From assembly GCF_008000775.2 (NCBI RefSeq), contig NZ_CP042905.2, forward strand, positions 1,140,001-1,172,000: DNA of 32,000 nucleotides, read 5' to 3'. The notes under the pieces were generated by a model. The model was not told the DNA's origin and searched no databases. It saw nothing but the letters and a program-made list of their open reading frames with translations. The DNA comes from Promethearchaeum syntrophicum (lineage in GTDB: Archaea > Asgardarchaeota > Lokiarchaeia > Sigyniarchaeales > Promethearchaeaceae). The position numbers and the translations under genes were made by a program. Positions 4,363-32,000 of this stretch are shown piece after piece (position 1 is the first letter of the stretch; each line of letters opens with the position of its first letter).

Positions 4363-4441
4363 TATTATATTACCTTAAAATACATTAATTAAAAAATTCG
4401 ATTATGCTATCTACATTACAAAATTCTATTTTTAACTTAAA

Positions 4442-4702: not shown

Positions 4703-4791
4703 GTTTATTCCGAAGTTAATTATGAATGTCAACTTAAATATTTATTTTGTTAAGCATAAGGTTTTATTTGGCAATCGAATATTATAGTGAT

Positions 4792-7700
4792 ATGGCGAAA
4801 AAATCGTGTAGTAAACACTATAGGTACGTCGCAACTTGTCCGAATTGTAGGGCTGAAAATGACGCCAAAGAACCAGACAAGATTGTAGAGCCCGAAATAC
4901 CTTTATATGGAGATGTTAATGAGGGTGAAGATCGAGCTCCGCCACCAGATCGATTTCAATATATACGTCGTCTTCCTCCAGGTAGTAGAAAACGTTTATT
5001 AATTATCGGAGTGGTTATTGCTATAGTTATTGTGATTATTGGGCTATGGAGTATACCTCTATGGCTGGCTAAGATAAACTTACAACAACAGCTTTATGCA
5101 GTTAAAGGGGGTAATCTTGATTTCTGGGAATTATATACTCTAAATTTTTGGTCAACAAATTTTTTCTTTAATAAAATAGGGTTAATTGGAGCGTTAATTG
5201 GTTGTTTTATTATGTCAATTCCTCCTGAAAACACACTTCTTGCTCTTTTAGGGCGAAAATTTGGATGGGGTGTAATTTCTAAAAAAAAAGTATTCTTATT
5301 ATGGTGGACTGCTGGATTTGCACTTTTCTTTATAATTGGCCAAGCTATGGAAACTGGATATTTTGCATTATCCATGTATATGATCGAAGAAGGAGATACA
5401 TCATTTTCTTTTTTAAAAGCTATCAGTATATTGAATGGTAATTCAAACGTTTCTCAATTGGATGTATTTATCTATAAATCCGTAACTCTTCCGATAATCA
5501 ATTATATTTTAATTTTAATCGCTCTAAGAGTCATAATTTTAATAGTAAAATATTTCCTTTTAAAAGATGAATTCTTGATTGCAGCTCAAGTTAGTTTCTT
5601 AATAGAAATTTTCTTCTTGATGGGATTATTTGGAAAACCCCTTGATACATTAAATGGAATAGATTTTATACAGATATGGAGTATATACCTTGGTTTAATT
5701 ATTTTCCTTGGTGTGGGGATTGCCTTCATGATCATCGGAAAAAGGAGAAGAAGAATCAATATTACTCAATTTCCACGAAATATTCAAAAACAGGCAATTG
5801 TTAGTGCCCTTGCGATAATCATCATTATTTTAATCCCTGTTTTTAGTAGTATTCCAAAAAGTGTAGGGTTAACTCAACAAGAAATTTGGGAGGAAGTTGA
5901 ATGGGATGTAAAATATGAGAAACAAATTGACTGGACCCGACAAGCGGCAGGGATGGAAATTGGCACTAAAGAATTTTTCACCGTGAATGATATTAATGAT
6001 TATCCAGACAATGTCACTGTTGAAGATTTGGATCTCTTGAATGTCATTCGGCGATATGATAAACAAATCTCAGTAAAACAAATGGACCCTATTGCCCAAT
6101 TAACGCATGAGTCCCTCGCAGATAGTGATATCATATTTATTCCTAACGGAACAGGACAAGGAGAATATTGGGTTGCTCCTAAAACAATAAATGTTGATAT
6201 TCTTGATAATTCGGTAAAAATGCATACAGAATTCTATGACCATGTAGAAGGTTTTATTGCATTAGATACTTCCTCTGGGGGTATTGTCGATAATGCCGAA
6301 TTTGAAGCTATTTTTGGAGTTTCAAGTGATCATCCAATTTTCTTTGGTGAACGTGAAGAATCATTCGATACTAGTTCTGTTTTTGACACTACTACGTTTA
6401 TTGAAAAAATTGCGTATGAAAATGATATTTTACTAGGTAGTAATTGGAGTACAACTAACACTTATCGTTATGATATAACCAATGATCTTCCTGATGGGAA
6501 TCTTACTGGGTTACAAGCATTTTGGTTTACATTAGATATGGGTTTAACCTCATATGCACTTGATGGTCAGCTGAAAGAATATTTAATTAACAGAAATATT
6601 CGAACTCGTGTGGAATCCGTATTAATGCCAGGTCTTAGAATAGATGATGATCCGTATTTAGTGTTTGATCGAGAAAATGGGAAAATGTTTTATGCTGTAT
6701 CAATTTTTACCGATATCGAAATTGGCTCCTATACTATGTGTCCTATGTATCGTTTTATGGGTGTTGCTTTAATTGATGTTAAGAGCGGTGAAATATCTTG
6801 GTATAGAAATCCTGGATTACCTGCCTTTACTAATGACAATCTAGGATCTCTTTGGAGTTTATATGCAAATCTTTATCCATGGCAAGATCCTGAAATTTGG
6901 CTCATGAATCAACTTCGTTATCCAGAAACTCTATGGGAAAATCAATTAAAGGTCGATTATATTTATCACGTTACTGAACCAACCACATGGTTTGCTGAGA
7001 ATGATTTTTATGTACTACCTGACAATGGAGATGTGTTCTATATTGAAACGGATTTAGGAGATGGACTCGAATTTGTTGGTGTTCAACTTGTAAAATACAC
7101 TCGTGCTGAAGCATTAAAACTAGCTGGTCTTTACATAATAAGACAAGGAGAACATTTTGGGGAAACATTGTTTTATCAGACACTAAATTCTCTACAAGAT
7201 TTAACTGGACCAAATACCGCATCTGATCAATTTGAAACAGACGCAAGTGAAAGAATAACTCTTATAGGCGATAATAGGTTTGGTAATGTTCTTCTATATC
7301 CCCTCGCAGGTTCTCTTTATTATTTTATCCCCGTTTATTCTGTTTTAGAAGATTATGAAACGTTAGCTTTTATTGGACTTGTGAACGCTTTCAATAAATC
7401 CCTAATAGCATATGGAAATACATTAGCTGAAGCTTATAGTGATTTATCAATTAAACTTGATTTGACAACACCGGTAGAAACTTCATCTGATGATTTAGCA
7501 TTAAATTTGATTTCATATACTGAAGAAATTACCTATGGTGTTGATAATTGGGCAGAATTTAGAACTTTAATTGATTATTTCAATACTACAGAGACTCTTC
7601 CGATGCGAAACCTTACCTTAAACATGACAGTTCGTTCCGCAGTAAATATGAGTGTTAAAGTATCAAATGTGTTAATTCCTGGGATAGAATATGATTTTAC

Positions 7701-7920
7701 GCCCTTAACAACAGCTTTTAATTATACTCTCGCAACTTGGAATGATACAACAGGATTAAACCCTGGCGATTTAGCGGGAATTACAATTAAAATGAACACT
7801 GAAGAAAATTTGGACTCAGATATCTATGTTTATTATAAGTTTGATTTAATTGATATAGATGATCCAACAAAGATATTATCTACCGTCTGGTATTCCATTT
7901 TATGGAATGTAGATGTTTAA
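4792..7920 (+). CDS. UPF0182-family large polytopic membrane protein with an N-terminal zinc-knuckle extension
   Basis: About 1,040 aa. It has an N-terminal block of multiple hydrophobic helices followed by a large soluble region. The region contains LRYPETLWENQLKVDYIYHVTEPTTWF, which resembles the conserved YPEDLF...YHMTDP..FY signature I recall for UPF0182. N-terminal motif: CSKHYRYVATCPNC. The track start at 4747 is TTG, so I prefer the ATG at 4792 (MAKKSC...). Confidence 0.65.
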   Translation: MAKKSCSKHYRYVATCPNCRAENDAKEPDKIVEPEIPLYGDVNEGEDRAPPPDRFQYIRRLPPGSRKRLLIIGVVIAIVIVIIGLWSIPLWLAKINLQQQLYAVKGGNLDFWELYTLNFWSTNFFFNKIGLIGALIGCFIMSIPPENTLLALLGRKFGWGVISKKKVFLLWWTAGFALFFIIGQAMETGYFALSMYMIEEGDTSFSFLKAISILNGNSNVSQLDVFIYKSVTLPIINYILILIALRVIILIVKYFLLKDEFLIAAQVSFLIEIFFLMGLFGKPLDTLNGIDFIQIWSIYLGLIIFLGVGIAFMIIGKRRRRINITQFPRNIQKQAIVSALAIIIIILIPVFSSIPKSVGLTQQEIWEEVEWDVKYEKQIDWTRQAAGMEIGTKEFFTVNDINDYPDNVTVEDLDLLNVIRRYDKQISVKQMDPIAQLTHESLADSDIIFIPNGTGQGEYWVAPKTINVDILDNSVKMHTEFYDHVEGFIALDTSSGGIVDNAEFEAIFGVSSDHPIFFGEREESFDTSSVFDTTTFIEKIAYENDILLGSNWSTTNTYRYDITNDLPDGNLTGLQAFWFTLDMGLTSYALDGQLKEYLINRNIRTRVESVLMPGLRIDDDPYLVFDRENGKMFYAVSIFTDIEIGSYTMCPMYRFMGVALIDVKSGEISWYRNPGLPAFTNDNLGSLWSLYANLYPWQDPEIWLMNQLRYPETLWENQLKVDYIYHVTEPTTWFAENDFYVLPDNGDVFYIETDLGDGLEFVGVQLVKYTRAEALKLAGLYIIRQGEHFGETLFYQTLNSLQDLTGPNTASDQFETDASERITLIGDNRFGNVLLYPLAGSLYYFIPVYSVLEDYETLAFIGLVNAFNKSLIAYGNTLAEAYSDLSIKLDLTTPVETSSDDLALNLISYTEEITYGVDNWAEFRTLIDYFNTTETLPMRNLTLNMTVRSAVNMSVKVSNVLIPGIEYDFTPLTTAFNYTLATWNDTTGLNPGDLAGITIKMNTEENLDSDIYVYYKFDLIDIDDPTKILSTVWYSILWNVDV

Positions 7921-11907: not shown

Positions 11908-12525
11908 TTATTTCTTTTTTTGAAAAAAATAATCCAGAAATCCAAATTTATATTTTGAATCGAGCTCCAATCGATGAATAAATTTCTTCTGTTTTTCTAG
12001 AATATGCACATCTTTTAGCATGATTTCACATTCCTCTTCAGTTAAAAGAGTATGGATAACTTTTTCTCCATCAAAAATTTCAACATATTCACCCGGTGCT
12101 AGTTCTTCTGCACTTTTATGGAGATCGTCATCAATATCTAAAAAATTTATAAACCCAATACCACCAGGTTTAAGAATTCGAATCATTTCATTAACAGCTT
12201 GATGAATTTCTTTTTTAGTCATATGGAAAATAGTATTGTAAGAGTATACAGCATCAAAAGAATTATCTTCAAATGGAATTTCTTTCATATTTGCTTTTTG
12301 CAGGTTAATTTCAATATTATTTTCCTTAGCAAATTGCTTCGCTGACTCTAAGGAATCATCAGAAATATCAATTCCATATAAATCCTTATATCCGTATTTT
12401 GCTAAAAGCCCTAATTTAGGGTATCGCCCCCCTGCACCACAATCAAGGATTTTATTTCCAACTTCTTTCTGTTTTAAAAACCACAAAAAATCATATATTT
12501 CTGTTGTGAATTCATTTCGATTCAT
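11908..12525 (-). CDS. Class I SAM-dependent methyltransferase
   Basis: ILDCGAGGR (motif I), LYGIDISD (motif II acidic residue) and FDAVYSYNTIFHM match a Methyltransf_11/25-like layout. It lies 37 bp downstream of the nucleotidyltransferase gene. Confidence 0.8.
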   Translation of the reverse strand: MNRNEFTTEIYDFLWFLKQKEVGNKILDCGAGGRYPKLGLLAKYGYKDLYGIDISDDSLESAKQFAKENNIEINLQKANMKEIPFEDNSFDAVYSYNTIFHMTKKEIHQAVNEMIRILKPGGIGFINFLDIDDDLHKSAEELAPGEYVEIFDGEKVIHTLLTEEECEIMLKDVHILEKQKKFIHRLELDSKYKFGFLDYFFQKKK

Positions 12526-12562
12526 AAATCTAAACCTCTAATAACTCAATTATTAATTTTAA

Positions 12563-13285
12563 TTATAATTTCTTTTGAATTTGCTTTGCTAAATTTAAAT
12601 CATCAAGCGTATCAATTTCCATGCAAAATTCATTTACAATATCCAAAGGGATCAAATTTATTGTATCTGAGATCTCATTAAAAGCATTTTCAGCATAACA
12701 AGAAGTATTATTGTTTTTTACGAATTTCTCAATATTATTCATCCATAATTCAAAGTCTTCTTTAGTCCAATAATAAAGAGGGAGTAGGAATATGGCTTTT
12801 TCTCCAAATACGTCAATTCCAATTTTTGTTATTTTTCCATTTTGGATTAATCCCTTAAAATCCTTTTCAGGTAATGGGGTTGCTCGATCAACGATAGCGG
12901 AACTTTTTTTTTGTTTGACTATTTTTTGAATCACAGATTTTTCAAACACTAAATCTCCATGTAATAGAAGAATATCGTCATCATTGATTTCACTTCTCGC
13001 CAGCCACATTGAATAAATATAATTTGTAGATTCGAATTTTGGATTATTGGGATATATTACATCTAATTCGGGGAATTTTTCGTTTACATGATTAATTATT
13101 TTATCTTGTAAAGGACCAGTGGTGATAATATATTTTTTTACTCCGACTGATAATAATAATTCAATCTGGCGCTGTAAAATCGATTTTCCGTTTATTTCTA
13201 ATAAACATTTTGGCAAATTATCTGTTAAAGGTTTCAATCTGCGCGCTAAACCAGAATTTAAGATTAATGCTTTCATAGGTTTCAT
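12563..13285 (-). CDS. LicC/GlmU-type nucleotidyltransferase (candidate phosphonate or phospho-alcohol cytidylyltransferase)
   Basis: N-terminus KALILNSGLARRLKPLTDNLPKCLLEINGKSIL is the NTP-transferase signature (G-x-G-x-R-L...P-K). 240 aa. Confidence 0.75.
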   Translation of the reverse strand: MKPMKALILNSGLARRLKPLTDNLPKCLLEINGKSILQRQIELLLSVGVKKYIITTGPLQDKIINHVNEKFPELDVIYPNNPKFESTNYIYSMWLARSEINDDDILLLHGDLVFEKSVIQKIVKQKKSSAIVDRATPLPEKDFKGLIQNGKITKIGIDVFGEKAIFLLPLYYWTKEDFELWMNNIEKFVKNNNTSCYAENAFNEISDTINLIPLDIVNEFCMEIDTLDDLNLAKQIQKKL

Positions 13286-13300
13286 CTTTGATATTTATCT

Positions 13301-14470
13301 TTATAATAGTGTATGTAAAATTTTCCTTAATTTGTCTTCAGTTAATTTTCTGGGATTGTGCTTCACACGATCGGGAGTAAACCCTTCAGCGATTATCAAT
13401 TCAATTCCTTTCTTATCTATTCCAACTTCATGCAATTTAGTGGGTAAATTAAGAGTTGTCATCAAATTTGTTATCATCTGTGCAGCATTATCAGGTGAAT
13501 CTGCTCCAATCGCATCTGAGATTTTCCTTAACCGATCAGGGGCTTCATCTATGTTATTTTCAGTTTTTTCAGAATTGAATAAAAGAAATTGACTAAGTGT
13601 CAATGCACAAGCTAGTCCATGAGGGACATTGAAATGTAATGTAATTGGATAAGAGACTGAATGAACCGCAGTAGTTTTTGTATTGCTAAATGCTAAACCA
13701 GATAATAAACTTCCAAATGCTAGATTTTTTCGGATGTCAATATTTGAAGGATCTTTGAAAATCTCTTGGAGATTTGAAAATATAATAGGAATTGCTTGCA
13801 AAGCATAAATATCAGAAATCTTATTATGGTTTTTTGACCAATAAGCTTCAATAGCTTGACTGAATGCATCCAATCCCGTAATAACTGACATTTTTTTCGG
13901 TAAACTTTTGACTAGCGTTGGATCAATAATAGCACCTTTTGCATACATCTTAAGGTCAGATAAAGAATACTTTTTTTGCTTTTCTCCCAAATCCCAGACT
14001 GTAGCCCATCGAGTAACTTCAGAACCGGTTCCGGATGTTGTAGGTACTTCTATCAAAGGAATTCCATAATTTTCAAGAGTTTTACCTTCTTTAAGATACA
14101 GATTAATACTCCCTGGATTATTTCCTAATATTGCCATACATTTAGCAGTATCCATGGCGGATCCTCCTCCAATTCCAATTATTAAATTGTAATTCTTATT
14201 CCTGACTAAATTTGCTCCATTATCAATAATCTTTATCGAGGAGAAATATCCTTCTTTTTCAAAAATCTCAACTATAAAACCATCTTTTTCTAATAATTCA
14301 AGAATTTTTTCGGAAATTCCCAAAATATTTAGAAGGTTTTTATCAGTGACAATAAGTATCTTAGCATTTTTTATACTTTTTGTATATTTTTGAACAATCT
14401 CGGAAATATTTAGTAGTGAATTTATTCCAAATAGGACTTCCACCGGATTGTAATAAGTTTTCAATGTCAT
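13301..14470 (-). CDS. Group III iron-containing alcohol dehydrogenase (candidate phosphonoacetaldehyde reductase)
   Basis: GIGGGSAMDTAK and PTTSGTGSEVT motifs are present. It sits immediately downstream of ppd. The track start at 14479 is TTG, and the first ATG (MTLKTYYNP...) is at 14470. Confidence 0.8.
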   Translation of the reverse strand: MTLKTYYNPVEVLFGINSLLNISEIVQKYTKSIKNAKILIVTDKNLLNILGISEKILELLEKDGFIVEIFEKEGYFSSIKIIDNGANLVRNKNYNLIIGIGGGSAMDTAKCMAILGNNPGSINLYLKEGKTLENYGIPLIEVPTTSGTGSEVTRWATVWDLGEKQKKYSLSDLKMYAKGAIIDPTLVKSLPKKMSVITGLDAFSQAIEAYWSKNHNKISDIYALQAIPIIFSNLQEIFKDPSNIDIRKNLAFGSLLSGLAFSNTKTTAVHSVSYPITLHFNVPHGLACALTLSQFLLFNSEKTENNIDEAPDRLRKISDAIGADSPDNAAQMITNLMTTLNLPTKLHEVGIDKKGIELIIAEGFTPDRVKHNPRKLTEDKLRKILHTLL

Positions 14471-14503
14471 CTTTATCAATTTTCAATTTTTTTTTTTTTT
14501 ACT

Positions 14504-15631
14504 TTAATCTTGAAGAAATTTCATAAAATAGTCTTTATTTTGAATTGGAGTAGTGGTAGGTCTTCCCAAATCATCTCGTGAGCCTTTTTTGACTTTAATA
14601 ATTAACATTGATGGTCCTTTTCCATCTTCCTTGAACATCTTATTTAATGCAATTTTCAATTCTTCTTTATTATTTGCTTGATAAACTGAAGTATAGCCAC
14701 TTCCAAGACAAATTTCTTTGAAATTGATGGTATCTGAGACAGTAGGTTGTCCCCCTGTAGATTCATGAGCATTGTTATCAATTAATATATGGAAAAAGTT
14801 CTCTGGATGATAGTGTCCAATAGTAGTTAGTGCACCAAGCTGCATAATTAATGCGCCATCACCATCTAATACAACAGTTTTTTTCTTTGAATTCAATGCT
14901 ATGCCTAAAGCGATTGAAGAAGTGCATCCCATCGAACCTACTGTGTAGAAATCGCGTGGATTTTCTCCTCTCGCAATTCTTAACTCAAAAATTTCTCGAG
15001 AAGTTTTACCTGTTGTTGAAACAATAACCTCGTCACCAGTGAAGGATTCAATTATTGTTTTTAATGCTTCTTCCCTCGTCATTTCATAAGTAATTTCTTT
15101 TCTTTTTGTACTAGTAAAAGGTTCAATTATGTTTTTTTTTACAATCAAAGCATAGGGTTTTTTATTGTCCTTAAAGAAAATTGAAATTTTTTGTAGTACC
15201 TGCTCAAATTCTGATAGAGTTTCTGGTAAATAACTATAGGGAATTTCTAGTGCTTCTAAAATAGGTATCATAACTCTTCCCATTTTTTTATGTTGAGGTT
15301 CATCCTTCTTACCTGGTTCACCCCTCCATCCAATCATTAATAATATTGGTATAGAATATACTTCAAAATCTGCCAGAGAAGTAATAGGATTGACCGTTTT
15401 TCCAAATCCAGAATTTTGCATATATACAACTCCAACATTTTTTGTTGCTAAATGATAACCTGAAGCAATAGCCACTGCTTCACACTCATTACAAGCAATA
15501 ATATTTTTCAATTCATTTCCATTATTTTCATCTAAATAGGTCATCCACGCTTTAAAAGTTGAATCAGGAACACCCGTAAAGAAAGAAAAATTGTGTTTTT
15601 TAAAACCATTCCAAATTTCATTACAATTCAT
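14504..15631 (-). CDS. ppd: Phosphonopyruvate decarboxylase (ThDP-dependent)
   Basis: It has N-terminal FFTGVPDS and the ThDP motif GDGALIMQLGALTTIGHYHPENFFHILIDNN. At ~375 aa it is typical of Ppd/ComDE, and it lies 18 bp downstream of pepM. The track start at 15640 is GTG, and the first ATG is at 15631. Confidence 0.8.
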   Translation of the reverse strand: MNCNEIWNGFKKHNFSFFTGVPDSTFKAWMTYLDENNGNELKNIIACNECEAVAIASGYHLATKNVGVVYMQNSGFGKTVNPITSLADFEVYSIPILLMIGWRGEPGKKDEPQHKKMGRVMIPILEALEIPYSYLPETLSEFEQVLQKISIFFKDNKKPYALIVKKNIIEPFTSTKRKEITYEMTREEALKTIIESFTGDEVIVSTTGKTSREIFELRIARGENPRDFYTVGSMGCTSSIALGIALNSKKKTVVLDGDGALIMQLGALTTIGHYHPENFFHILIDNNAHESTGGQPTVSDTINFKEICLGSGYTSVYQANNKEELKIALNKMFKEDGKGPSMLIIKVKKGSRDDLGRPTTTPIQNKDYFMKFLQD

Positions 15632-15649
15632 ATTATTCACACCAGCACT

Positions 15650-16945
15650 TCAAATTGGTATTAAATCAAGTATTTCTTTAATCGAGATACAATATTTATC
15701 AGAAGCTTCTTTCGCTCTATGATTTGTTAAAATTGATTTTGCGGTTTTCAGCATATTCGGATATGCACTTCTGAGAAGCTGATTTGCATAAATTACAACT
15801 TTAATTCCTGCACTTATTAATTCTTCTTCAGTAATTTGGGAATATGTGCTTGGAACAACAACTAACGGAACTTTATCTTTTAAATTATTGTAATTTTTAC
15901 AAAAAGTTAGAATCTCATCAGGATTATCTTCTTTACTATGAATCATAATACCATCAGCTCCCGCCTTGATATATGCTTTAGCGCGTTTCAAAGCATCTTC
16001 TTGACCTTGTTTAAGTATAAGACTTTCAATTCGTGCAATAATCATAAAGTCTTTAGTTACTTGGGCTTTTTTTCCTGAATTGATTTTAGTAGAGAAGTTT
16101 TCAATGGTATCTTGACGTTGAACTACATCAGTTCCAAATAGAGAATTTCTCTTCATACCCACTTTATCTTCAATAATAACTGCTGAAATCCCCAATCTTT
16201 CTAAAGTTTTAACGGTATATAAAAAATGTTCAACTAATCCCCCATTGTCTGCATCAACAATCATTGGTTTGGTTGTTACATCGAGAATTTCATTAATTGT
16301 CCTTATTCTTGACGTAATATCGACGCACCCCGTATCCGGTTTACCTTTAGAGGTAGAATCTGTTAAACTACTCTCCCACATCCCATCAAACTCTCTAAAA
16401 GATTCTCCTTCATAAATACCCGTTAATTCCGCAATTCTTCCTGTTAATCCATTATGTGTTTCGAGTATTCTAACAATAGGTTTCATTTGAATAAGTGTTC
16501 TTAGTTTCTTAAGTCGCTTTTCTGGCGTGGTCCCTACTCCAAATTTATCTTTAATTAATTGTCCAGAGTTTAATCCTTCTGTGAATTCTGGTTCAATCAA
16601 ATTTCCATCCCATTCTTTTAAAACTTCTATTACCTGCAATCTAGTATTCTTTAAAGGACCTTCTTTCCAATCATCACCGTGGACTACATATTCTGGTTTG
16701 ATTTTTCTTAAATTCTCACTATAGTCTAAAGAATTCTGGGGGATTATTTCTGATACTCCTTGAATATTTTCAATGACCTCCTTTCTCTGTTGATAATTTA
16801 AAACGGGAAGTCGTTTGTATGTAGCAATCGCTTCATCTGTAAGCAACCCTATTATAACTTGACCGAGTTTCCTTGCTTCTTTAATGATTCGAAGATGTCC
16901 CGGATGTATGAAATCAGCTGAAAGTGCAACATAAACCTTTGTCAT
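15650..16945 (-). CDS. pepM: Bifunctional cytidylyltransferase (HxGH type) - phosphoenolpyruvate mutase fusion
   Basis: The N-terminal ~135 aa (YVALSADFIHPGHLRIIKEARKLG) show the TagD-like HxGH nucleotidyltransferase motif. The C-terminal ~290 aa contain ETHNGLTGRIAE, MWESSLTDS and VDADNGG. They also carry the PepM-diagnostic EDKVGMKRNS (EDKX5NS) at 16142..16171, verified at the nucleotide level. The track start at 16957 is TTG, and the ATG is at 16945. Confidence 0.85.
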   Translation of the reverse strand: MTKVYVALSADFIHPGHLRIIKEARKLGQVIIGLLTDEAIATYKRLPVLNYQQRKEVIENIQGVSEIIPQNSLDYSENLRKIKPEYVVHGDDWKEGPLKNTRLQVIEVLKEWDGNLIEPEFTEGLNSGQLIKDKFGVGTTPEKRLKKLRTLIQMKPIVRILETHNGLTGRIAELTGIYEGESFREFDGMWESSLTDSTSKGKPDTGCVDITSRIRTINEILDVTTKPMIVDADNGGLVEHFLYTVKTLERLGISAVIIEDKVGMKRNSLFGTDVVQRQDTIENFSTKINSGKKAQVTKDFMIIARIESLILKQGQEDALKRAKAYIKAGADGIMIHSKEDNPDEILTFCKNYNNLKDKVPLVVVPSTYSQITEEELISAGIKVVIYANQLLRSAYPNMLKTAKSILTNHRAKEASDKYCISIKEILDLIPI

Positions 16946-17033
16946 ATTTTCTATCAAGCAATCATTGAAAAAAAAGTTTCAACATTTATTGCATGGATCA
17001 AAGAATTTTAGGAATGAAAAATGATAGTAATAT

Positions 17034-19413: not shown

Positions 19414-21057
19414 TTACATCATACCCGGAGGCATTCCGCCCATACCACCCATACCGCCTGGAGGTCCACCGGAAGATTTTCGGGCTTTAATCATATCATC
19501 TATTCGTAAAATCATGACTGAAAGTTCGGTAGCAGACTTGATTATTTGGTCAATGTTCGCCACTGGCTCAATTACTCCGCTAGCTCGATTATCGACCACT
19601 TTACCTTGATATATTTCCAATCCTGCAAATTCATTACCTGGTTTTGAGTGTTCTCCGCGGAGTTCTGCAATTATATTAATTGGATCTAATCCTGCGTTCT
19701 CAGCTAATGTGATTGGGATAATTTCCAATGCTCTAGCATAAGATTCAATAGCTATCTGCTCTTTACCTGATTGTTTGGAAGCCAAATTCAATAATCTTTG
19801 GGATAATTCCATTTCAACGGCTCCACCACCACCGACTATTGCATTTCTATCGTGAACCGAAGCAATAACACATAAAGCATCATGTAAGGTTCTTTCTGCT
19901 TCATCTAAACCCGCTGTGACTCCCGCTCTTAGCAAAATTGAAACTGCCTTTGGATTTTTACAGCCAGAAATAAAACACAAATCATCTCCTGCGATTTTTT
20001 TAAATTCAACCTTTTTAGCGAATCCTAGGTCTTTTTCTGTCAAACTGTTGATGTTCTCAACGATTTTGCCTCCAATAGCCTTCTGAATCTTTTCAAGATC
20101 AGATTTAGTCACAGATTTAACAGCAACAATGCCATATTTATGTAGGAAATGACTTACCGAATCTTCGATTCCTTTTTGATTGATGACTACATTTGCACCT
20201 GATTCTTTGATTTTCTCTGCATAGTGTTTTAAAATTGATTCTTCTTGATCTAAGAAGTTCTGGATTTCATTTGGATCGCTAATTTTTAAATCACTGGAAA
20301 ATTCAGTTTTCTTTATCTCGAAAGCTTGTGATATTAGAGCAATTTTTGCGTTATCTACGATTTTTAGCATCATTTGGTGAGTTGGTTCTTTTTCTAAGAT
20401 GATTCCATCGATTATTTGAGACTCTTTAATCGACTTTCCCTTCTTCTTGACAATCACGATATTTTTTACCTTTGCCATATTGTTCTTTTCAGATTTGACT
20501 TTTGAAAATGCATCTACGGCAAGATCTGAAAAGAATTCTTTATTTCCACTTATACCTTTACTATTCATAGTAGTTATTGCAATATTTTTTAGGATTTCAC
20601 GGTCTTTACTAGGATCGATACTTACTGCAATTTCATCTTTTAAGATTTCTCGAGCCCTTTTACCTGCTAAAGAATAACCACGAGCGACAATTGAAGGATG
20701 GATTCCTTGACTCATTAATTCATTAGAGACTGTGAGCAATTGACCGGCGATTATAACACTGCTTGTTGTTCCATCACCCACATTTGTATCTTGAGTTTTA
20801 GAAATCGTAACTGCCATTTTTGCACCTGGGTGTTCAACATCTAAATTTTCTAAGATTGTGGCACCATCATTAGTAACGGTTATATCTCCTAATGAATCAA
20901 CTAACATTTTATCCATACCTCTTGGACCGAGGGTGGATTTTACTGCTTCTGCAACTGCTTGAATAGCGACGATGTTTTTCGAACGAGCATCATTCCCTTT
21001 TGTATGTTCGGAGCCCTCTCTAAGTACCAAAATGGGCATTCCGCCGAGTTGTGACAT
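19414..21057 (-). CDS. ths: Thermosome subunit (group II chaperonin)
   Basis: LGPRGMDKMLVD, ITNDGATIL, VGDGTTS and GGGAVEMELS motifs are present. 547 aa with a C-terminal GGPPGGMGGMGGMPPGMM tail. Confidence 0.95.
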   Translation of the reverse strand: MSQLGGMPILVLREGSEHTKGNDARSKNIVAIQAVAEAVKSTLGPRGMDKMLVDSLGDITVTNDGATILENLDVEHPGAKMAVTISKTQDTNVGDGTTSSVIIAGQLLTVSNELMSQGIHPSIVARGYSLAGKRAREILKDEIAVSIDPSKDREILKNIAITTMNSKGISGNKEFFSDLAVDAFSKVKSEKNNMAKVKNIVIVKKKGKSIKESQIIDGIILEKEPTHQMMLKIVDNAKIALISQAFEIKKTEFSSDLKISDPNEIQNFLDQEESILKHYAEKIKESGANVVINQKGIEDSVSHFLHKYGIVAVKSVTKSDLEKIQKAIGGKIVENINSLTEKDLGFAKKVEFKKIAGDDLCFISGCKNPKAVSILLRAGVTAGLDEAERTLHDALCVIASVHDRNAIVGGGGAVEMELSQRLLNLASKQSGKEQIAIESYARALEIIPITLAENAGLDPINIIAELRGEHSKPGNEFAGLEIYQGKVVDNRASGVIEPVANIDQIIKSATELSVMILRIDDMIKARKSSGGPPGGMGGMGGMPPGMM

Positions 21058-26881: not shown

Positions 26882-27400
26882 CTAATTTTCTTTTAAAGTG
26901 AATTTCCAAGCGCAATAATATTCTTCAGGATGAATATCAGGTGGGCAACAAATGCATTCGGTTTCTATTCGATCATCAATTGTTGAAGCGAAATAGCTGT
27001 ATTCAACAATACCCACAGATTTACAAGGAAAGTCTTCTAATCCTTTTCTAGTTCTTGCAGTTTGAACTCTACATTTATTCATATGGAATACACATGAATT
27101 ATCTGTTATGTCGATAATTTCCTGGACATTTATATTCGCATATAGGCGAAATTTTAAAGCTTTTATCAAACCAGGAATTCCTGGGTGTTCTTCAAGTTTC
27201 AGAAATTTTTTAATTTGTTTTGCTTCAATTTGTGTGAAACGCTGCCATCCAATTCTATCGTATTTCATTGCAGTGTCAATTCCTAATTCTGATTCAATTC
27301 CTTGGAACCAACAGCCATCATGAGCGAGCCAGTTTTTTGAAAGCATCTCAATATAATCCAGAAGTTCATCTCTACTAAGATCTTTCAGATCGATTCTCAT
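26882..27400 (-). CDS. Conserved-looking hypothetical protein with a C-terminal cysteine cluster
   Basis: 172 aa with NWLAHDGCWFQG near the N-terminus. Cysteines occur at ...NKCRV..., ...FPCKS... and ...ETECICCPPD... No family assignment is possible by eye. Confidence 0.55.
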   Translation of the reverse strand: MRIDLKDLSRDELLDYIEMLSKNWLAHDGCWFQGIESELGIDTAMKYDRIGWQRFTQIEAKQIKKFLKLEEHPGIPGLIKALKFRLYANINVQEIIDITDNSCVFHMNKCRVQTARTRKGLEDFPCKSVGIVEYSYFASTIDDRIETECICCPPDIHPEEYYCAWKFTLKEN

Positions 27401-27980: not shown

Positions 27981-28619
27981 ATGATTACTCAATTTAGTTT
28001 TGTTTTAGGATTAGATAATATAGTATTAAATAATTATTGGAGAAAATATTTTGCTTATCTTAAAATTGGATGGGATGATGCTTCAATTCGACATTACTTA
28101 TCCAAAAAAGAATATATGATGCAAATTGCATCTTTTAATACAAGAACTGTAAGTTTTTCTGCAAGTTCTCGAAGAAATCGTTTTTATGAAATATATAATC
28201 GTCCAGATATGTTGGAACAAGATGTAGCTTGGGATGGTTCTATTGAAGCTATTAAAAAAATTAGCCAAAAATTTAAAATTTATATTATTTCTTCAAGATC
28301 CACAGAATTGAGAAAGAAAACTTTGGAAGTTATGAAAAAATTGGGATTTCCAATGGAAAATCTTACTTTATACTTTAAAAATCCAAATGAATCCCTTTCA
28401 ATATATCGAAAAAATAGTTTCAATGTTATTAAAGAAGAATATGTTGGTGGTGTAGGAGTATGTCTAAATATTAGTGATAGATATAACTATGAACGGATAG
28501 GGTATACTCCCATAGCATTCAGTTCTATTAATGATTATAAAAGTTTTGATGGTAAGATAGCGGTAATTTGCCAAAATTGGACAGACATATTACATTCTCT
28601 GTCAATGAATGGAAATTAA
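27981..28619 (+). CDS. Hypothetical protein, possibly a HAD/NT5C-like fold with a degenerate motif I
   Basis: 212 aa starting 11 bp after the previous stop. FVLGLDNIVLNNYW occupies the position of the hhhhDxDxxL motif but lacks the second Asp. KIYIISSRS...KKLGFP resembles HAD motif II/cap spacing. Confidence 0.4.
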   Translation: MITQFSFVLGLDNIVLNNYWRKYFAYLKIGWDDASIRHYLSKKEYMMQIASFNTRTVSFSASSRRNRFYEIYNRPDMLEQDVAWDGSIEAIKKISQKFKIYIISSRSTELRKKTLEVMKKLGFPMENLTLYFKNPNESLSIYRKNSFNVIKEEYVGGVGVCLNISDRYNYERIGYTPIAFSSINDYKSFDGKIAVICQNWTDILHSLSMNGN

Positions 28620-28648: not shown

Positions 28649-29563
28649 ATGAGTTTAGATAAAAAAGCAGATGAATTAGAATCAAAAATAAAAAAATTGA
28701 AAAAATCTAAGGATTATGAACAAATGATTCCAATTTTTATGGAACTTAAGGATATCTACAAGAAATTAAATTTCACTTTTCTAGCTAATAAAGCGGAAAC
28801 TGAAATGTACAAATATCAAAAACACATTGAACAATCAAAATTGAGTCAAAATTTTCTTGGAGATAAAAAATCTGAATTAAATCAAAGAAAAAAGCAAGAA
28901 ATAGTAAAAAAAATTCAGGAAACTACAGCAAAATTGCCAACTCCTCCATCAAATTTTCAAGATAATCAAACAAACAAGAATTTCAATCAAGATATCAAAA
29001 AAAGTCGGGCAGAAAAAATAAGAGATTTAAAACGAAAGAAAGAAATTGAACAGCAAAATGTTGATAAAGCTAATGCAATATTAGATAAAGCTCAATCTCA
29101 TATGAAAAAGAAAGATTTTGAGTTAGCTGCTAAATTTTATAATGAATCCTCTGATATTTTTAAAGAGATTGGTTGGAATCAACAAGCTTCTATGTTAAAA
29201 AAAGAAGCTTTACATATGCAGGAACTCCAGGAAGAATATCTAAAAAAAATGGAAATTATTAAATTAAAAAAACAAAAAGAACAGGAAATGTATGATACTC
29301 GTGCTTCTAAGATTATGGCTGAAAAAGAAGAAAAAATTCGATTAGAACAAGAAGCTTTAAATAAATTACCTCCCGAAATTCAACGTAAAATCGACTTAGC
29401 CAAAATTTTTCTTCAAAAAACTGAATTAATGGAATCAAAGGGAAAGATCGAAAAATCTCTCGTACGTTATAAATATCTTCTTGAATTATATGAAGATATT
29501 CCTGATACTAATGACCAAAAGGGAATGGTTTTGGAAAAGATAAAAGAATTGGAAAAAAAATAA
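28649..29563 (+). CDS. Coiled-coil / TPR-like protein, paralogous to the N-terminal part of the giant ORF
   Basis: 304 aa. DKANAILDKAQSHMKKKDFELAAKFYNESSDIFKEIGWNQQA aligns with DKALSLLDEAIQFRNLNQFDLATNAYKEALEIFKKIGWQKEA, which the minus strand encodes around 3540..3670. Confidence 0.65.
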   Translation: MSLDKKADELESKIKKLKKSKDYEQMIPIFMELKDIYKKLNFTFLANKAETEMYKYQKHIEQSKLSQNFLGDKKSELNQRKKQEIVKKIQETTAKLPTPPSNFQDNQTNKNFNQDIKKSRAEKIRDLKRKKEIEQQNVDKANAILDKAQSHMKKKDFELAAKFYNESSDIFKEIGWNQQASMLKKEALHMQELQEEYLKKMEIIKLKKQKEQEMYDTRASKIMAEKEEKIRLEQEALNKLPPEIQRKIDLAKIFLQKTELMESKGKIEKSLVRYKYLLELYEDIPDTNDQKGMVLEKIKELEKK

Positions 29564-29576
29564 ATTTCTAATATAT

Positions 29577-31520
29577 CTATTTTTCAAGTTTGTCAGGATC
29601 AAAAAGTCCATTATTAGGGATTGTATATTGATTCATACATACAGGGCATGAATTATGATGTTGGATCCACTGAACTACACAAGTATAATGAGTTAAAGCT
29701 CCACAAAATTCACATTTTACAAAATTATCTTCAGCAACATTTACCGATCGCCTACAAATGGCACATGTACCTGATCTTAATCCATTTTCATTTAATTGAG
29801 ATTCTAATATTTTAACAAGATTTTCTTTTTCCTTCAAATATTTTTCCTTGAGATCTTCAATTTCTAAAATTTTATTATTAAATTTTTGAATTTTATTGCG
29901 TAAATCCTTTTCAGATAATCGTTCAGGTTTGAGAAAATCAGTAGAATCATATTTTTGTATATTATCTCCAAGGGAGTTTGCATTTAAAGTATCAAAAAAT
30001 TCTTGTTCTTTCTCCAGAACATTATTGAATTGGTGAAAAATTGAGATTATTAGACCCTTTAATGAAAATTTTGCACGATTTAAAATAACTGTATAATCAT
30101 CATCCCACTTATCTTTAATTGAAGTAATATTGACTCCTTTTTTCCTAAATCGATTGAAAGTATTATCTATATCATTTTTCATACTTGATATTTTCTCTTG
30201 AAAATCATCTATTATCCCCTTTAATTCATCTATCTTAGGTATACTCTCTGGAATATAAGGAGCAGTAATTTTTTGATAATCTTTTAGAAGTATTTCCATA
30301 TTAGTTATATTCTCCCGAGATAATCTCTCTAATTTTATCTTATCGCTATCGACTTGGATCGAGTTGGAATATTGTTCAAATTCTTCCAATTGCCTACTAA
30401 TTTCGCCTCTAAGTTGTTTTAGCATCTGGTACGATTTTTTAAGAACATCTGGCCAAGGATTCATTAAATTAGAAATATTTTTTAATCTTAGTTCTATTTG
30501 ATCGATAATTTCAAACAGTATTTTTCCATGTTCTTGGAGAATTTGATTAGCAGTATGAAAATCTCCATGATATTCGCTAGTAATTTCTTCTTGTTTTCGA
30601 TTTAGCAAATCTAACATAGTACGTGGAATTTCTTTAAGTGGATTGACATCATCATCTCCAGAATACCCGATTTCATATTCTTTTGCTGCTTGTGACATCA
30701 ATTGGTTTATAATATCATGGGAAAATAACTCAAGTTGTCTTTTTATTTGATTTTTCTTAACTTTTTCCATTTTTGAGTACAAATTTTCTGTTTTTAAAAC
30801 CTTAAGTTCAAAAAGTAGGAAAAAAAGTTCTAATCTAAATGGTTTATCTTTAATACTTGGTTGGTTTATTAAATCTGACATGGTAAAGATCTCAGAAAGA
30901 ACAAATTTTGATGATTTTAAGTTTCTAATTAAATAATCTACTTCTTTAAAATTCTTTAACCAAGGATATTTCTCAAAATTCAGGAAAAATTTAGATTCCT
31001 TAAGAAAAGCAAAAGAATACCAAATTTGAGGCTTATTCTCATAGGGGAGCTTGGGAGCTATGGAAAATTGCTTCGAATTTTTATCGTAATCACTGAGTTG
31101 AATCCATTTACTTAATAAAATTGTAAGATTTTTCTGACATCGATCATTCAATTGTTGAAGTTCTTTTATTGTTCTAGAAAAGATTGTATTTTCTTTATAA
31201 ATTAATCTTATCGAGCGTAATTTAGGAAGTAGCAAAGAAATCGAATTTTCTATAGTTGAAATCTCTGAGAATATAAGTTCAGGGATCGAGGTATAATCAT
31301 TAGAATTTAGATTTGTTAATAATAAATTAATACTCTGTAAATATTTAAAAATACGATTAGTAAAATTAGGTTTTATTTCACGTTCGATTTTTTTTAATTG
31401 TGATAGTGATGCTATCCTTTTATTTCCTTTATCATCAATTATTCTGGCTAAAATTTCATTTAATGTACTGAAAATTTTCCAATTATTGTTAATAATGTAA
31501 AATAACTGGTTATTGTTCAT
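29577..31520 (-). CDS. Large helical protein with a C-terminal C4HC3 RING/PHD-type zinc finger (candidate E3-ligase-like)
   Basis: 647 aa. The C-terminus is CAIC-x13-CEFC-x4-H-x2-C-x10-CPVC (aa 586-628, nt 29637..29765). It includes C-VVQW-x6-CPxC, which resembles the RING-H2 tail. The preceding ~580 aa are helical, partly coiled-coil, with no TM segment. Confidence 0.75.
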   Translation of the reverse strand: MNNNQLFYIINNNWKIFSTLNEILARIIDDKGNKRIASLSQLKKIEREIKPNFTNRIFKYLQSINLLLTNLNSNDYTSIPELIFSEISTIENSISLLLPKLRSIRLIYKENTIFSRTIKELQQLNDRCQKNLTILLSKWIQLSDYDKNSKQFSIAPKLPYENKPQIWYSFAFLKESKFFLNFEKYPWLKNFKEVDYLIRNLKSSKFVLSEIFTMSDLINQPSIKDKPFRLELFFLLFELKVLKTENLYSKMEKVKKNQIKRQLELFSHDIINQLMSQAAKEYEIGYSGDDDVNPLKEIPRTMLDLLNRKQEEITSEYHGDFHTANQILQEHGKILFEIIDQIELRLKNISNLMNPWPDVLKKSYQMLKQLRGEISRQLEEFEQYSNSIQVDSDKIKLERLSRENITNMEILLKDYQKITAPYIPESIPKIDELKGIIDDFQEKISSMKNDIDNTFNRFRKKGVNITSIKDKWDDDYTVILNRAKFSLKGLIISIFHQFNNVLEKEQEFFDTLNANSLGDNIQKYDSTDFLKPERLSEKDLRNKIQKFNNKILEIEDLKEKYLKEKENLVKILESQLNENGLRSGTCAICRRSVNVAEDNFVKCEFCGALTHYTCVVQWIQHHNSCPVCMNQYTIPNNGLFDPDKLEK

Positions 31521-31590: not shown

Positions 31591-32000
31591 ATGAATCAGA
31601 AAATTTGCAAAGAAAAAAGAGAAACAAAACTGTCTTCTCAATATATCGCGCAATATAAAAATTCTTCTCGAGGATTAATTTTTGCTTTAATTGTTTTAAT
31701 AGGGAATGGTTTACATCCGATTATTAATAATTTACGGCCAGAAGAATTTATTTCTACAATATTTGTACTGCAAATGTCATTATGGGAATTTTTCTGTGCT
31801 TTTATCGTTCTTTTACTCCAAAAAAGAAACAAGAAAGAAAAATCAAAAAGTCCAATTTCTAAAAATTCAAGTCAAATATGCTTTTCAAAAAAAAATATAA
31901 TATTTAGAATGCTGATTGTTGGTTTACTTTTTTCGATCGCTACTTATGGGTACGTTGAAGGATTAAAAGAAGCTGGTTCAATTTCTGGATCTATAGCATT
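31591..32000 (+). CDS. EamA/DMT-like transporter, partial (5' part; runs off the right edge)
   Basis: An ATG at 31591 follows an in-frame TGA, and hand translation is open to 32000. Sequence: MNQKICKEKRETKLSSQYIAQYKNSSRGLIFALIVLIGNGLHPIINNLRPEEFISTIFVLQMSLWEFFCAFIVLLL...MLIVGLLFSIATYGYVEGLKEAGSISGSIA. It contains three hydrophobic helices. It is not in the ORF track because it is truncated. Confidence 0.45.
   Translation, partial: MNQKICKEKRETKLSSQYIAQYKNSSRGLIFALIVLIGNGLHPIINNLRPEEFISTIFVLQMSLWEFFCAFIVLLLQKRNKKEKSKSPISKNSSQICFSKKNIIFRMLIVGLLFSIATYGYVEGLKEAGSISGSIA

Follow-up and report, generated by a model that had tools for sequence, protein, structure and literature searches.

A candidate RING-type E3 ubiquitin ligase with a long helical rod in Promethearchaeum syntrophicum and related Asgard archaea

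A 647-residue protein of Promethearchaeum syntrophicum MK-D1, with a long helical region and a C-terminal RING finger, is best explained (at a probability of roughly 0.6) as an Asgard RING-type E3 ubiquitin ligase in which a heptad-bearing helix probably pairs two chains and a rod would serve for substrates or anchoring. The initial annotation of this DNA had proposed a eukaryote-like E3-ligase architecture and had noted that RING domains, rare in prokaryotes, count among the eukaryotic signature proteins of Asgard archaea. The DNA does come from an Asgard archaeon, and the core of the ligase reading is supported by a Pfam zf-RING_2 match, by a predicted RING fold, and by RING-H2 relatives. 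Thus, judging from sequence and structural models, ubiquitin ligation is the most likely function.

The gene and its product

The gene lies on the minus strand of the window, that is, the whole stretch of 32,000 nucleotides that was analyzed. The gene and the parts of the protein, in their order from the N-terminus, are as follows:

29577..31520, minus strand: gene of the RING-finger protein, complete, 647 aa (ORF listing; ATG start, stop codon at 29577-29579)
29988..31520, minus strand: N-terminal helical rod, aa 1-511 (AlphaFold)
29916..29987, minus strand: linker, aa 512-535, modeled at low confidence (pLDDT <50 at 512-530 in model 2 and at 509-535 in model 1)
29787..29912, minus strand: amphipathic 42-residue helix, aa 537-578, directly before the RING (AlphaFold, both models)
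29631..29768, minus strand: RING finger, aa 585-630 (Pfam zf-RING_2, phmmer against PDB, Foldseek, ligand conservation)
29580..29630, minus strand: conserved C-terminal tail, aa 631-647, with the motif [YF]632-x2-P635-[ND]-x2-[LI]639-[FY]640

The ORF listing, with an ATG start, agrees with the initial reading of a 647-aa product, and both AlphaFold models consist mostly of helix, as had been expected from the sequence. The protein is identical to record P0001, which NCBI names 'RING finger domain-containing protein [Promethearchaeum syntrophicum]'; the call of a RING domain is consequently not new. By gene order in Supplementary Table 3 of Imachi 2020, it corresponds to DSAG12_01637 of strain MK-D1, which is entered there as hypothetical with an RPKM of 145 and is not among the eukaryotic signature proteins (Imachi 2020). 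The gene is real and transcribed. A search of the literature found no paper describing this family, and a promoter and terminator scan of the gene gave results at chance level, using bacterial models that are not applicable to an archaeon.

The RING finger

Residues 586-628 (CAICRRSVNVAEDNFVKCEFCGALTHYTCVVQWIQHHNSCPVC), 43 residues within the last 62 of the protein, contain eight RING ligands (C586, C589, C603, C606, H611, C614, C625, and C628) in a spacing compatible with a cross-brace. This spacing, first read from nt 29637..29765 as C-x2-C-x13-C-x2-C-x4-H-x2-C-x10-C-x2-C, matches the ORF translation exactly. In the family alignment of 42 members, whose overall identity to the query is 12-36%, all eight ligands are invariant in every member, and their spacing recurs across the whole family. 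Pfam zf-RING_2 (PF13639) scores 29.2 bits against the query, compared with a gathering cutoff of 27.3 (E = 1.1e-6), and the Pfam scan finds it in 42/42 members. Given the invariant ligands, the recurrent spacing, and the score above cutoff, the C4HC3 pattern is no chance arrangement. Following the standard cross-brace scheme, C586, C589, H611, and C614 are proposed to form zinc site 1 and C603, C606, C625, and C628 to form site 2.

When the finger is compared with PDB sequences by phmmer, the best match is RNF126 (2.6e-6), and AMFR, Arkadia, EL5, and RNF165 are also found. It had been noted at the outset that the third and fourth ligands are C-x2-C instead of C-x-H; in the RNF126 alignment, the canonical His position is A608, and the pair is supplied by C603-x2-C606. 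The tail of the finger, H-x2-C-x3-W-x6-C-P-x-C, had been called RING-H2-like, and it does align position by position with ligases of this type, RNF126 among them. A His as the fourth ligand in C-x(1-3)-H, which marks the canonical RING-H2 (C3H2C3) finger, is absent from the query. On these alignments, the finger is of RING-H2 lineage, with C-x-His replaced by a C603-x2-C606 zinc knuckle to give the C4HC3 set. The same swap is seen in other Asgard RING proteins, which are fused to PKD or TPR modules. As a recurrent feature, it is of use in delimiting an archaeal subtype of RING.

The predicted structure is of the same kind. In Foldseek, the AlphaFold RING matches the RING-H2 domain of EL5 (1iym) with a probability of 1.00, a TM of 0.71-0.76, and an rmsd of 1.5-2.0 A over 47-53 columns, with further matches to the RINGs of Ring1B and PCGF. 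The model resembles cross-brace RING-H2 domains and no zinc ribbon, the distinction on which the initial reading had hinged. The C-terminal 45 residues are thus predicted to adopt a two-zinc cross-brace RING fold and presumably bind zinc.

The surface that would bind an E2 is also well conserved. Among the 42 members, position 588, between ligands 1 and 2, is I or V in all, W618 is kept in 40, and P626, which follows ligand 7, is kept in 41; in AlphaFold model 2, W618 is borne by a central helix of RING type (612-622). On the other hand, an Arg/Lys linchpin after the last Cys, which is common in active RINGs but not universal, is missing: the query has M629, and the family mostly has Q (14), H (12), or N (10) of 42. 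I588 and W618 are the equivalents of I30 and W58 of the Caldiarchaeum small RING finger protein (srfp), residues that are functionally required there since their mutation impaired that RING E3 (PMC5654768). The linchpin position of the archaeal srfp is occupied by R69 (PMC5654768).

Comparison with known RING proteins

With the RING-H2 E3s (RNF126, EL5, Arkadia/RNF111, and AMFR/gp78), the query shares the second half of the finger, the central helix, and the hydrophobic E2-contact triad. It differs from them in having a C4HC3 rather than a C3H2C3 set, in lacking the Arg/Lys linchpin, and in carrying an unrelated 580-aa helical region. Small RING finger proteins are encoded in ubiquitin operons of Caldiarchaeum subterraneum and of Asgard archaea, including the Helarchaeial RING E3 (PMC5654768; bioRxiv 10.1101/2023.07.25.550441). 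Both they and the query are archaeal RINGs of RING-H2 lineage, the Caldiarchaeum srfp is likewise irregular around C3/H4, where it has an additional Cys (PMC5654768), and genomes related to the query carry the same ubiquitin/E1/E2/JAB gene set. However, the query is a protein of 647 aa with a rod, has its gene at a distance from the ubiquitin genes in MK-D1, and has no R69-type linchpin; its window contains no ubiquitin, E1, E2, or JAB/Rpn11 gene as an srfp operon would. In the sister clade described below, moreover, the gene and a proteasome beta paralog form a unit of their own.

Prok-RING_1 (PF14446, prokaryotic RING finger family 1) matches 20/42 members (best E = 2.6e-6) but not the query at E <= 1, whereas zf-RING_2 is universal in the family and the better match. 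The variant RINGs of Nse1/NSMCE1 and Slx1, together with PHD fingers, have ligand types identical to those of the query and a similar spacing; NSMCE1 was found by phmmer at E = 0.006, and SLX1_C is weakly matched in 17/42 members. These scores are nevertheless far under the family thresholds, the helix and E2-contact residues are RING-H2-like, and no Nse1 or Slx1 domain was found in the N-terminal region; in Nse1 of SMC5/6, the C4HC3 RING comes after tandem winged-helix domains.

A resemblance to Bre1/RNF20 and to the RING-bearing HOPS/CORVET subunits had been suggested initially. The layout stands, but no homology of sequence or fold is detectable in the N-terminal region, and no Bre1, Vps, or clathrin-repeat Pfam match occurs in the family. 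Bre1/RNF20, RNF8, Vps11/Vps18, and the query all have a long helical region and a C-terminal RING, and the helix before the RING of the query has a heptad seam. The Bre1 and RNF8 RINGs are C3HC4, and no Bre1-related family appears among the Pfam matches of the 42 members or in the PDB searches. Vps11 and Vps18 combine a beta-propeller with an alpha-solenoid, and neither is present in the query; in place of the architecture of Vps11, Vps18, and Vps8, with an N-terminal propeller and a solenoid of clathrin-heavy-chain type ahead of the RING, the models of the query have helices of 30-66 residues and no propeller.

The rod, the linker, the heptad helix, and the tail

In the AlphaFold models, the rod begins with helix bundles (15-142) and a mixed segment with short strands (143-250), followed by the long helices 253-281, 294-316, 321-353, 357-422, 430-460, and 466-514. 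Model 2 has 10-residue block means of pLDDT of 84-98 over aa 11-420, and about 45 full-length relatives show conservation along the entire rod. The initial annotation had recognized no match for the N-terminal ~580 aa, and Pfam, PDB HMM, and Foldseek searches give none that is significant. For the N-terminal region, Pfam has no match in any of the 42 members, and HMM searches of Pfam, NCBIfam, and PDB return coiled-coil noise only; for the rod, neither HMM nor Foldseek comparison finds a significant match in PDB. Spectrin repeats are a weak Foldseek match (probability 0.63, TM 0.45), so that a rod of spectrin-repeat type at aa ~290-514 is plausible but weak as a reading of the model. A cullin-like stalk was considered and rejected; CUL1/CUL5 chains are in the Foldseek list only at a probability <= 0.13 with an rmsd >20 A.

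The low pLDDT of the linker (aa 512-535) suggests that it is probably flexible. In helix 537-578, the heptads are kept in the family, with a hydrophobic fraction of 0.73 at a/d versus 0.17 elsewhere, which makes it a candidate coiled-coil dimerization element on both sequence and model. Within the C-terminal tail, P635 is invariant (42/42), and of the 42 residues at position 640, 26 are F and 12 are Y; the pLDDT of the tail is <50 in AlphaFold model 2, a monomer. By analogy, the aromatic residue of the tail might act as in dimeric RINGs, but this is a hypothesis only.

The family and its genomic context

Full-length relatives form at least 50 clusters, and all of the named ones are from Asgard archaea except for one MAG labeled Bathyarchaeota. 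Both Asgard archaea in culture, P. syntrophicum MK-D1 and Lokiarchaeum ossiferum, have a member, and the family extends to Hodarchaeota, which are placed near the eukaryotic stem. Related loci were sought with a 15-member family alignment as the query. When the 42-member alignment was used as a profile, only the same 16 close relatives came up, and the RING region by itself gave no word matches in a homology search. The loci have the synteny anchors asd and LysE in common, and each type of context corresponds to one clade in the tree; these two observations suggest that all context types belong to one orthologous family. The MK-D1 clade and a sister clade linked to the proteasome may thus be orthologous, sharing ~20% identity, architecture, and a loose synteny, although paralogy is possible.

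In MK-D1, the gene has these neighbors within the window:

27981..28619, plus strand: gene for a phosphatase-like protein of the HAD superfamily, 212 aa (Acid_phosphat_B in Pfam, E = 1.2e-5, slightly under cutoff)
28649..29563, plus strand: gene for a Lys/Glu-rich helical protein, 304 aa, convergent with the RING gene (sub-threshold TPR-like matches)
31591..32000, plus strand: start of an EamA-family transporter gene, divergent, leaving the window (open frame; 51% identity to its L003 homologue)

In loci L001-L006, the RING gene and a homologue of the Lys/Glu-rich gene meet tail to tail; the pair is about 3 kb apart in L007 and co-directional and adjacent in L009. The Lys/Glu-rich gene is thus a conserved syntenic partner, and perhaps a functional one. 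Pfam gives it weak TPR or MIT matches only, and a MIT domain was discarded as a candidate, being a single sub-threshold match in one homologue. Homology with the coiled-coil genes that, in L017 and L019, run convergently toward the RING gene was also dismissed, as BLASTP found none. The RING gene has a HAD-like homologue nearby in L001-L007 and L009-L011, at <=5 kb even in rearranged loci. The transporter frame is 51% identical to its homologue in L003 (E = 4e-29), which has Pfam EamA, and DSAG12_01638 is listed as an EamA-like transporter (Imachi 2020 table).

Pfam scans of essentially all ORFs of the window agree with the initial remark that it holds no ubiquitin, E1, or E2 gene, and no ubiquitin or proteasome genes adjoin the RING gene in MK-D1 or its nearest relatives. 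A ubiquitin-like conjugation machinery, on which the ligase reading had been made to depend, is present elsewhere in the genome: MK-D1 has a ubiquitin-like protein (DSAG12_00424), a UBCc-type E2-like protein (DSAG12_00996), and COG0476 E1-like genes, such as DSAG12_00904 and DSAG12_01100; the three kinds of gene are all transcribed (Imachi 2020 supplement).

The sister clade has a different context. In all five of its loci, the RING gene has a proteasome beta-like gene on the same strand 39-132 bp upstream, and in L017 and L019, a ubiquitin/ThiF/UQ_con/JAB cluster lies 1.6-2 kb downstream. This cluster stands apart as a unit and includes a membrane-anchored RING-like gene of its own; consequently, the long RING protein is not needed to complete the ubiquitin operon there. 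For the MK-D1 copy, a link to the proteasome would follow by extension from these relatives. L016 and L020 also have proteins with weak precomputed Prok-RING_1 matches in the vicinity of the RING gene.

Proposed function and alternatives

In the favored model, the RING surface, comprising I588, the W618 helix, and P626, would dock an Asgard UBC-type E2 charged with a ubiquitin-like protein, and the finger would in this way exert its putative ligase activity. The heptad helix 537-578 would probably pair two chains, as in coiled-coil RING ligases, so that the 647-aa protein is probably dimeric. The rod, of ~510 residues, would choose the substrates or tether the ligase to a partner, for which the proteasome is a candidate because the sister-clade orthologues stand operon-like behind a proteasome beta paralog and near a ubiquitin-E1-E2-JAB cluster. 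A bolder version of the model, which must be considered doubtful, takes the family as an Asgard invention and holds that the dimeric E3 docks by its novel rod on the proteasome via a catalytically dead beta paralog without Thr1, the one encoded immediately upstream in the sister clade, and prefigures the large scaffold-type RING ligases of eukaryotes.

Other explanations have to be weighed against this model. RINGs of HOPS/CORVET Vps11/Vps18, GATOR2, and alpha-COP serve in complex assembly without ubiquitin transfer, and the finger could likewise be a non-catalytic structural or assembly module for a rod-based multi-subunit complex. Such a role would be compatible with the lack of an Arg/Lys linchpin in the query (Q, H, and N being commonest in the family), with the absence of an E2 or ubiquitin neighbor in MK-D1 or close relatives, with the presence of a GATOR2 RING among the Foldseek domain matches (9lvk_B, probability 0.75), and with the large conserved rod, which suggests a scaffold. 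However, a purely structural finger would not need three E2-contact positions to stay near-invariant in a very divergent family. Furthermore, the proteins closest to it in sequence are RING-H2 ligases with catalytic activity, and genes of the proteasome and of the ubiquitin system accompany the gene in the sister clade. A structural role is unlikely.

The remaining explanations change either the modifier or the nature of the finger. MK-D1 also has Urm1 (DSAG12_01053) and MoeB/ThiF-type E1s, and Ufm1 homologues have been reported in Asgard archaea (PMC12962969), so the protein might be an E3-like adaptor for a Urm1/SAMP-type or Ufm1-like modifier. The cluster neighboring the gene in L017 and L019 is, however, of ubiquitin type with a UQ_con E2. 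A RING E3 is not known to be required for Urm1/SAMP conjugation, and the ligase for Ufm1 is not known to be of RING type. Weak Pfam matches to FYVE_2, C1_1, and Rubicon-homology domains in some members could instead indicate a zinc-dependent binder of nucleic acid or lipid unrelated to conjugation, but they are far weaker than the RING matches and concern a minority of members; these readings, taken as one, are very improbable. It had also been left open whether the finger is of RING or PHD type. The RING half of that description holds in both sequence and predicted fold, while the PHD half does not, since the PHD score is below the Pfam cutoff and the structural matches are RINGs. A PHD-type C4HC3 reader of a peptide or modified tail, e.g., of archaeal histones, acting without an E2, could draw on the ligand formula, which fits the PHD consensus, on weak Pfam PHD matches in 27/42 members (best E = 0.0018), and on histone-fold genes near the RING gene in L016-L018. 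Yet PF00628 gives the query 11.2 bits against a cutoff of 24, while zf-RING_2 passes, and the best domain-level matches in Foldseek are RINGs, not PHDs. In addition, the finger has the RING-type central helix 612-622 with W618, and the Trp that PHD fingers typically place two residues ahead of the seventh ligand is missing, position 623 being Asn in 37/42 members. A PHD finger is accordingly very improbable, and the RING-type ligase is retained as the preferred reading.

Implications

Work on the ubiquitin systems of Asgard archaea has until now relied on small RING proteins encoded in operons. In the present family, which is large and strongly conserved, the N-terminal rod is the obvious specificity element; consequently, these rod-bearing proteins would offer a concrete handle on the targets of Asgard ubiquitylation and on whether the proteasome is fed by it. 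If the ligase does dock on the proteasome, ubiquitylation would be coupled directly to degradation. This would be evidence that the archaeal ancestors of eukaryotes already had substrate-selective, proteasome-associated ligases and specialized non-catalytic beta subunits.

The RING gene and its existing annotation

The gene under study in MK-D1, the first cultured Asgard archaeon, lies on the minus strand at 29577..31520, starts with ATG, and encodes 647 aa, as the initial annotation had it. The proposed zinc-finger motif also stands, residues 586-628 reading CAICRRSVNVAEDNFVKCEFCGALTHYTCVVQWIQHHNSCPVC (nt 29637..29765) with the spacing C-x2-C-x13-C-x2-C-x4-H-x2-C-x10-C-x2-C. A short opposite-strand ORF (29621..29815) has no support. 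The RING call is already in NCBI public annotation, where an identical protein (P0001) is found. The gene order in the window agrees with that of DSAG12_01617-01638 (Imachi et al. 2020, Supplementary Table 3; PMC7015854), which makes the gene DSAG12_01637, listed there as a "hypothetical protein" with an RPKM of 145 and without a flag as a eukaryotic signature protein (ESP); the only two RING proteins in the ESP table are DSAG12_00657 and DSAG12_03879. A literature search found no paper that discusses the DSAG12_01637 protein. The surrounding genes fit an archaeal chromosome and include those for thermosome, a leucine-rich-repeat (LRR) protein, phosphonate biosynthesis, AlaX, a CDP-alcohol phosphatidyltransferase, a glycerol-kinase-like protein, DUF6125, DsrE, and a HAD-like protein.

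A RING-H2-like domain with a ligand swap

The finger had been described as RING/PHD-type, and Pfam, PDB sequence matches, and Foldseek all favor RING. Pfam zf-RING_2 matches the query at 29.2 bits (cutoff 27.3, E = 1.1e-6), and PHD reaches 11.2 bits, below its cutoff of 24. The closest PDB sequences are active RING-H2 ligases: RNF126 (2.6e-6), AMFR, Arkadia, EL5, and RNF165. When aligned with RNF126, the canonical third ligand corresponds to C606 and the canonical fourth-ligand His to A608; consequently, C603, three residues upstream of C606, would supply the C-x2-C knuckle, and the C4HC3 formula would reflect this swap within an otherwise RING-H2-like domain. The second half, H-x2-C-x3-W-x6-C-P-x-C, is typical of RING-H2, but the C-x2-C knuckle is not. 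In AlphaFold models made before and after the use of a 42-member family alignment, the C-terminal domain superposes on the EL5 RING-H2 (1iym; Foldseek probability 1.00, TM 0.71-0.76, rmsd 1.5-2.0 A, 47-53 columns), and the Ring1B and PCGF RINGs match likewise. The low overall Foldseek E-values arise because a 45-residue domain sits within a 647-residue query. A cross-brace zinc arrangement is predicted, as follows from the structural match.

The C4HC3 motif is present, with essentially fixed spacing, in all family members found. Across the 42 aligned sequences (12-36% identity to the query), only the eight ligands and P635 never vary; W472, E505, I601, Y612, W618, and P626 are conserved at 90% or more. 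A homologue at 93% identity (P0002), from a 2.2-kb metagenome contig, has Phe as its second zinc ligand (CAIF for CAIC). No other ligand change was seen in the family, and this one probably stems from a mistake in assembly or sequencing or marks a copy in decay. After the RING comes a conserved tail, [YF]632-x2-P635-[ND]-x2-[LI]639-[FY]640, whose aromatic position is 12 residues past the last Cys. In dimeric RINGs such as MDM2, BIRC7, and RNF4, a tail aromatic contacts donor ubiquitin; the likeness is no more than a lead.

E2-contact positions are also kept: I/V588 in 42/42, W618 in 40/42, and P626 in 41/42. Their counterparts in a small RING protein of Caldiarchaeum include I30 and W58, mutation of which impaired ubiquitylation in vitro (PMC5654768). 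However, its linchpin R69 (the Arg or Lys after the last Cys in many active RINGs), which was also tested (PMC5654768), has no counterpart here, this position being M629 in the query and most commonly Q, H, or N in the family.

The N-terminal rod

The description of the protein as helical holds, since both models are nearly all helix up to residue 578. Remodeling with the 42-sequence alignment raised the pLDDT from 66.9 to 85.6 (pTM 0.65), and for residues 11-420 the means of 10-residue blocks are 84-98. AlphaFold predicts the following elements:

Residues 15-142, helical bundles
Residues 143-250, mixed segment with short strands
Residues 253-281, 294-316, 321-353, 357-422, 430-460, and 466-514, very long helices
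Residues 512-535, low-confidence linker
Residues 537-578, single 42-residue helix running into the RING

This last helix has a conserved heptad seam (hydrophobic 0.73 at a/d versus 0.17 elsewhere). In the secondary-structure output it is a separate element beyond the linker, which suggests that it may pair as an intermolecular coiled coil beside the RING. The comparison with the layout of Bre1/RNF20 and of HOPS/CORVET subunits survives as an analogy, the protein having lacked the tested hallmarks of those families.

Family and gene neighborhoods

When 1.84 billion representative proteins were searched exhaustively by HMM, at least 50 family representatives appeared at E < 1e-30; of those listed, about 45 (636-805 aa) are full-length, their alignments spanning residues ~10 to ~645. 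Named cluster members are labeled Lokiarchaeota, Lokiarchaeia, Promethearchaeia, Promethearchaeota, or "archaeon"; one MAG is labeled Bathyarchaeota, and a Hodarchaeota protein falls within a divergent branch. Genome loci came from Promethearchaeum spp., Lokiarchaeum ossiferum, Harpocratesius repetitus, and other MAGs of Promethearchaeota. No full-length relative from bacteria or eukaryotes was among the matches listed. Among RING-only relatives with the same ligand spacing are a PKD-domain protein of Hodarchaeota, TPR proteins of Asgard archaea, and one fungal protein; given its presence in other Asgard RING proteins, the C-x2-C variant is a recurring Asgard RING subtype.

In MK-D1 and relatives down to ~30% identity, the RING gene lies between a divergent EamA transporter gene and a convergent gene for a Lys/Glu-rich TPR-like protein, followed by the HAD-like gene and, sometimes after intervening genes, DUF6125. 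In the window these are:

26882-27400, minus strand, DUF6125 protein
27981-28619, plus strand, HAD-superfamily, acid-phosphatase-B-like gene
28649-29563, plus strand, Lys/Glu-rich helical protein, 304 aa, convergent with the RING gene

The gene order described above is kept in six loci (L001-L006). In the rearranged L009, the HAD-like, Lys/Glu-rich, and RING genes are adjacent and co-directional, and in L010 and L011 the HAD-like gene is retained 5 kb upstream of the RING gene. In these three loci the HAD-like gene stays within a few kb of the RING-family gene despite altered orientation and intervening genes. Because synteny of the whole region can explain most of this conservation, the neighborhood is weak evidence for a functional link. 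Homologues of the Lys/Glu-rich protein span 194-484 aa, their neighborhood kept across genera, and give only sub-threshold TPR-like Pfam matches and, in one homologue, an MIT-like match. DUF6125 is unusually conserved, at 69-73% identity between genera where the adjacent RING protein is at 29-36%.

The context signal is stronger in a sister clade, where in 5/5 loci (L016-L020) the RING gene is preceded, at a distance of 39-132 bp and on the same strand, by a proteasome beta-like gene of ~205 aa. In L017 and L019, a ubiquitin cluster follows 1.6-2 kb downstream:

L016:7248-7868, proteasome beta paralog
L017:7269-7883, proteasome beta paralog
L018:9359-9961, proteasome beta paralog
L019:2438-3055, proteasome beta paralog
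L020:603-1220, proteasome beta paralog
L017:11658-16080, ubiquitin cluster
L019:6916-11934, ubiquitin cluster

Two rescanned copies of the beta-like gene match Pfam Proteasome (E = 3e-46 to 3e-51), and three scanned copies score 188-214 bits with NCBIfam arc_protsome_B, just below its cutoff of 224. Canonical beta subunits carry the catalytic Thr1 in TTTVGIK, whereas the paralog begins PGAxGVAIKCKDGVV, with Ala at that position; consequently, to judge from its sequence, it is probably non-catalytic. The cluster encodes a ubiquitin-like protein (PF00240, E = 2-3e-5), a ThiF-type E1, a UQ_con E2 (E = 4.6e-27 in L017), and a JAB protease, and ends with a multi-pass membrane protein bearing its own C-terminal RING-like finger. 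That finger, CIFC...CPNCxHPAH...CSRC, is likewise C-x2-C-x4-H, lacks the Cys usual at +3 after His, and is preceded by a low-complexity linker of Pro/Thr/Arg/Lys-rich repeats.

In an NJ tree each context type forms its own clade, and asd lies 0-8 kb from the RING-family gene in most lineages. Both observations would fit a single orthologous family whose region has been syntenic since ancient times; alternatively, the MK-D1 and proteasome-linked clades may be paralogues.

Other genes in the window

1-4374, minus strand, open frame of at least 1458 aa running off the window start
4747-7920, plus strand, 1057-aa protein with an N-terminal Cys-pair motif, CSKH...CPNC
11908-16957, minus strand, phosphonate biosynthesis cluster, here in an Asgard genome
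18113-19378, plus strand, LRR protein
19414-21057, minus strand, adjoining thermosome subunit

The first frame, reflected in a strongly negative skew of both GC and AT there, has scattered sub-threshold TPR-like matches and no other recognizable domain; the only significant Pfam match of the 1057-aa protein is a partial UPF0182. The phosphonate cluster comprises a PEP phosphomutase fused to a cytidylyltransferase domain, a phosphonopyruvate-decarboxylase-like TPP enzyme, an Fe-alcohol dehydrogenase, a nucleotidyltransferase, and a methyltransferase. A second thermosome gene likewise has an LRR gene, three genes off (DSAG12_01256 and DSAG12_01259; PMC7015854).

Interpretation

The best-supported explanation, with a probability of about 0.6, is that the DSAG12_01637 product is a RING-type E3 ubiquitin ligase. 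In this model, the conserved I588/W618/P626 surface would recruit E2~ubiquitin, the heptad helix would probably dimerize the protein, and the conserved rod would bind a substrate or partner, for which the proteasome is a candidate on the sister-clade evidence. The partners of such a ligase had been sought in the window, but their absence there is uninformative because the machinery genes are dispersed in MK-D1: the published ESP and gene tables list a ubiquitin-like protein (DSAG12_00424, RPKM 324), a UBCc-type E2 (DSAG12_00996, RPKM 341), and COG0476 E1-like genes (PMC7015854).

A RING that serves assembly rather than catalysis is unlikely; the missing linchpin in the query would favor it, but such a role would have to be reconciled with the retained E2-contact surface. 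Urm1 is also present in the ESP table (PMC7015854); involvement with a different modifier or ligand is quite improbable beside the ubiquitin cluster of the sister clade. A PHD-like reader, to which the C-x2-C knuckle and the sub-threshold Pfam match might point, is the least probable, given the superposition on EL5.

Archaeal E1/E2/RING cascades and Asgard RING proteins are already established (PMC5654768; bioRxiv 10.1101/2023.07.25.550441). What is new is a large, conserved, Asgard-restricted family, its confidently modeled N-terminal rod without a recognizable relative, the C-x2-C ligand swap, and the sister-clade link to a ubiquitin cluster and to a proteasome beta paralog that lacks Thr1. 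Although unsurprising to specialists, the family offers a good lead for experiments, with two of its hosts in culture.
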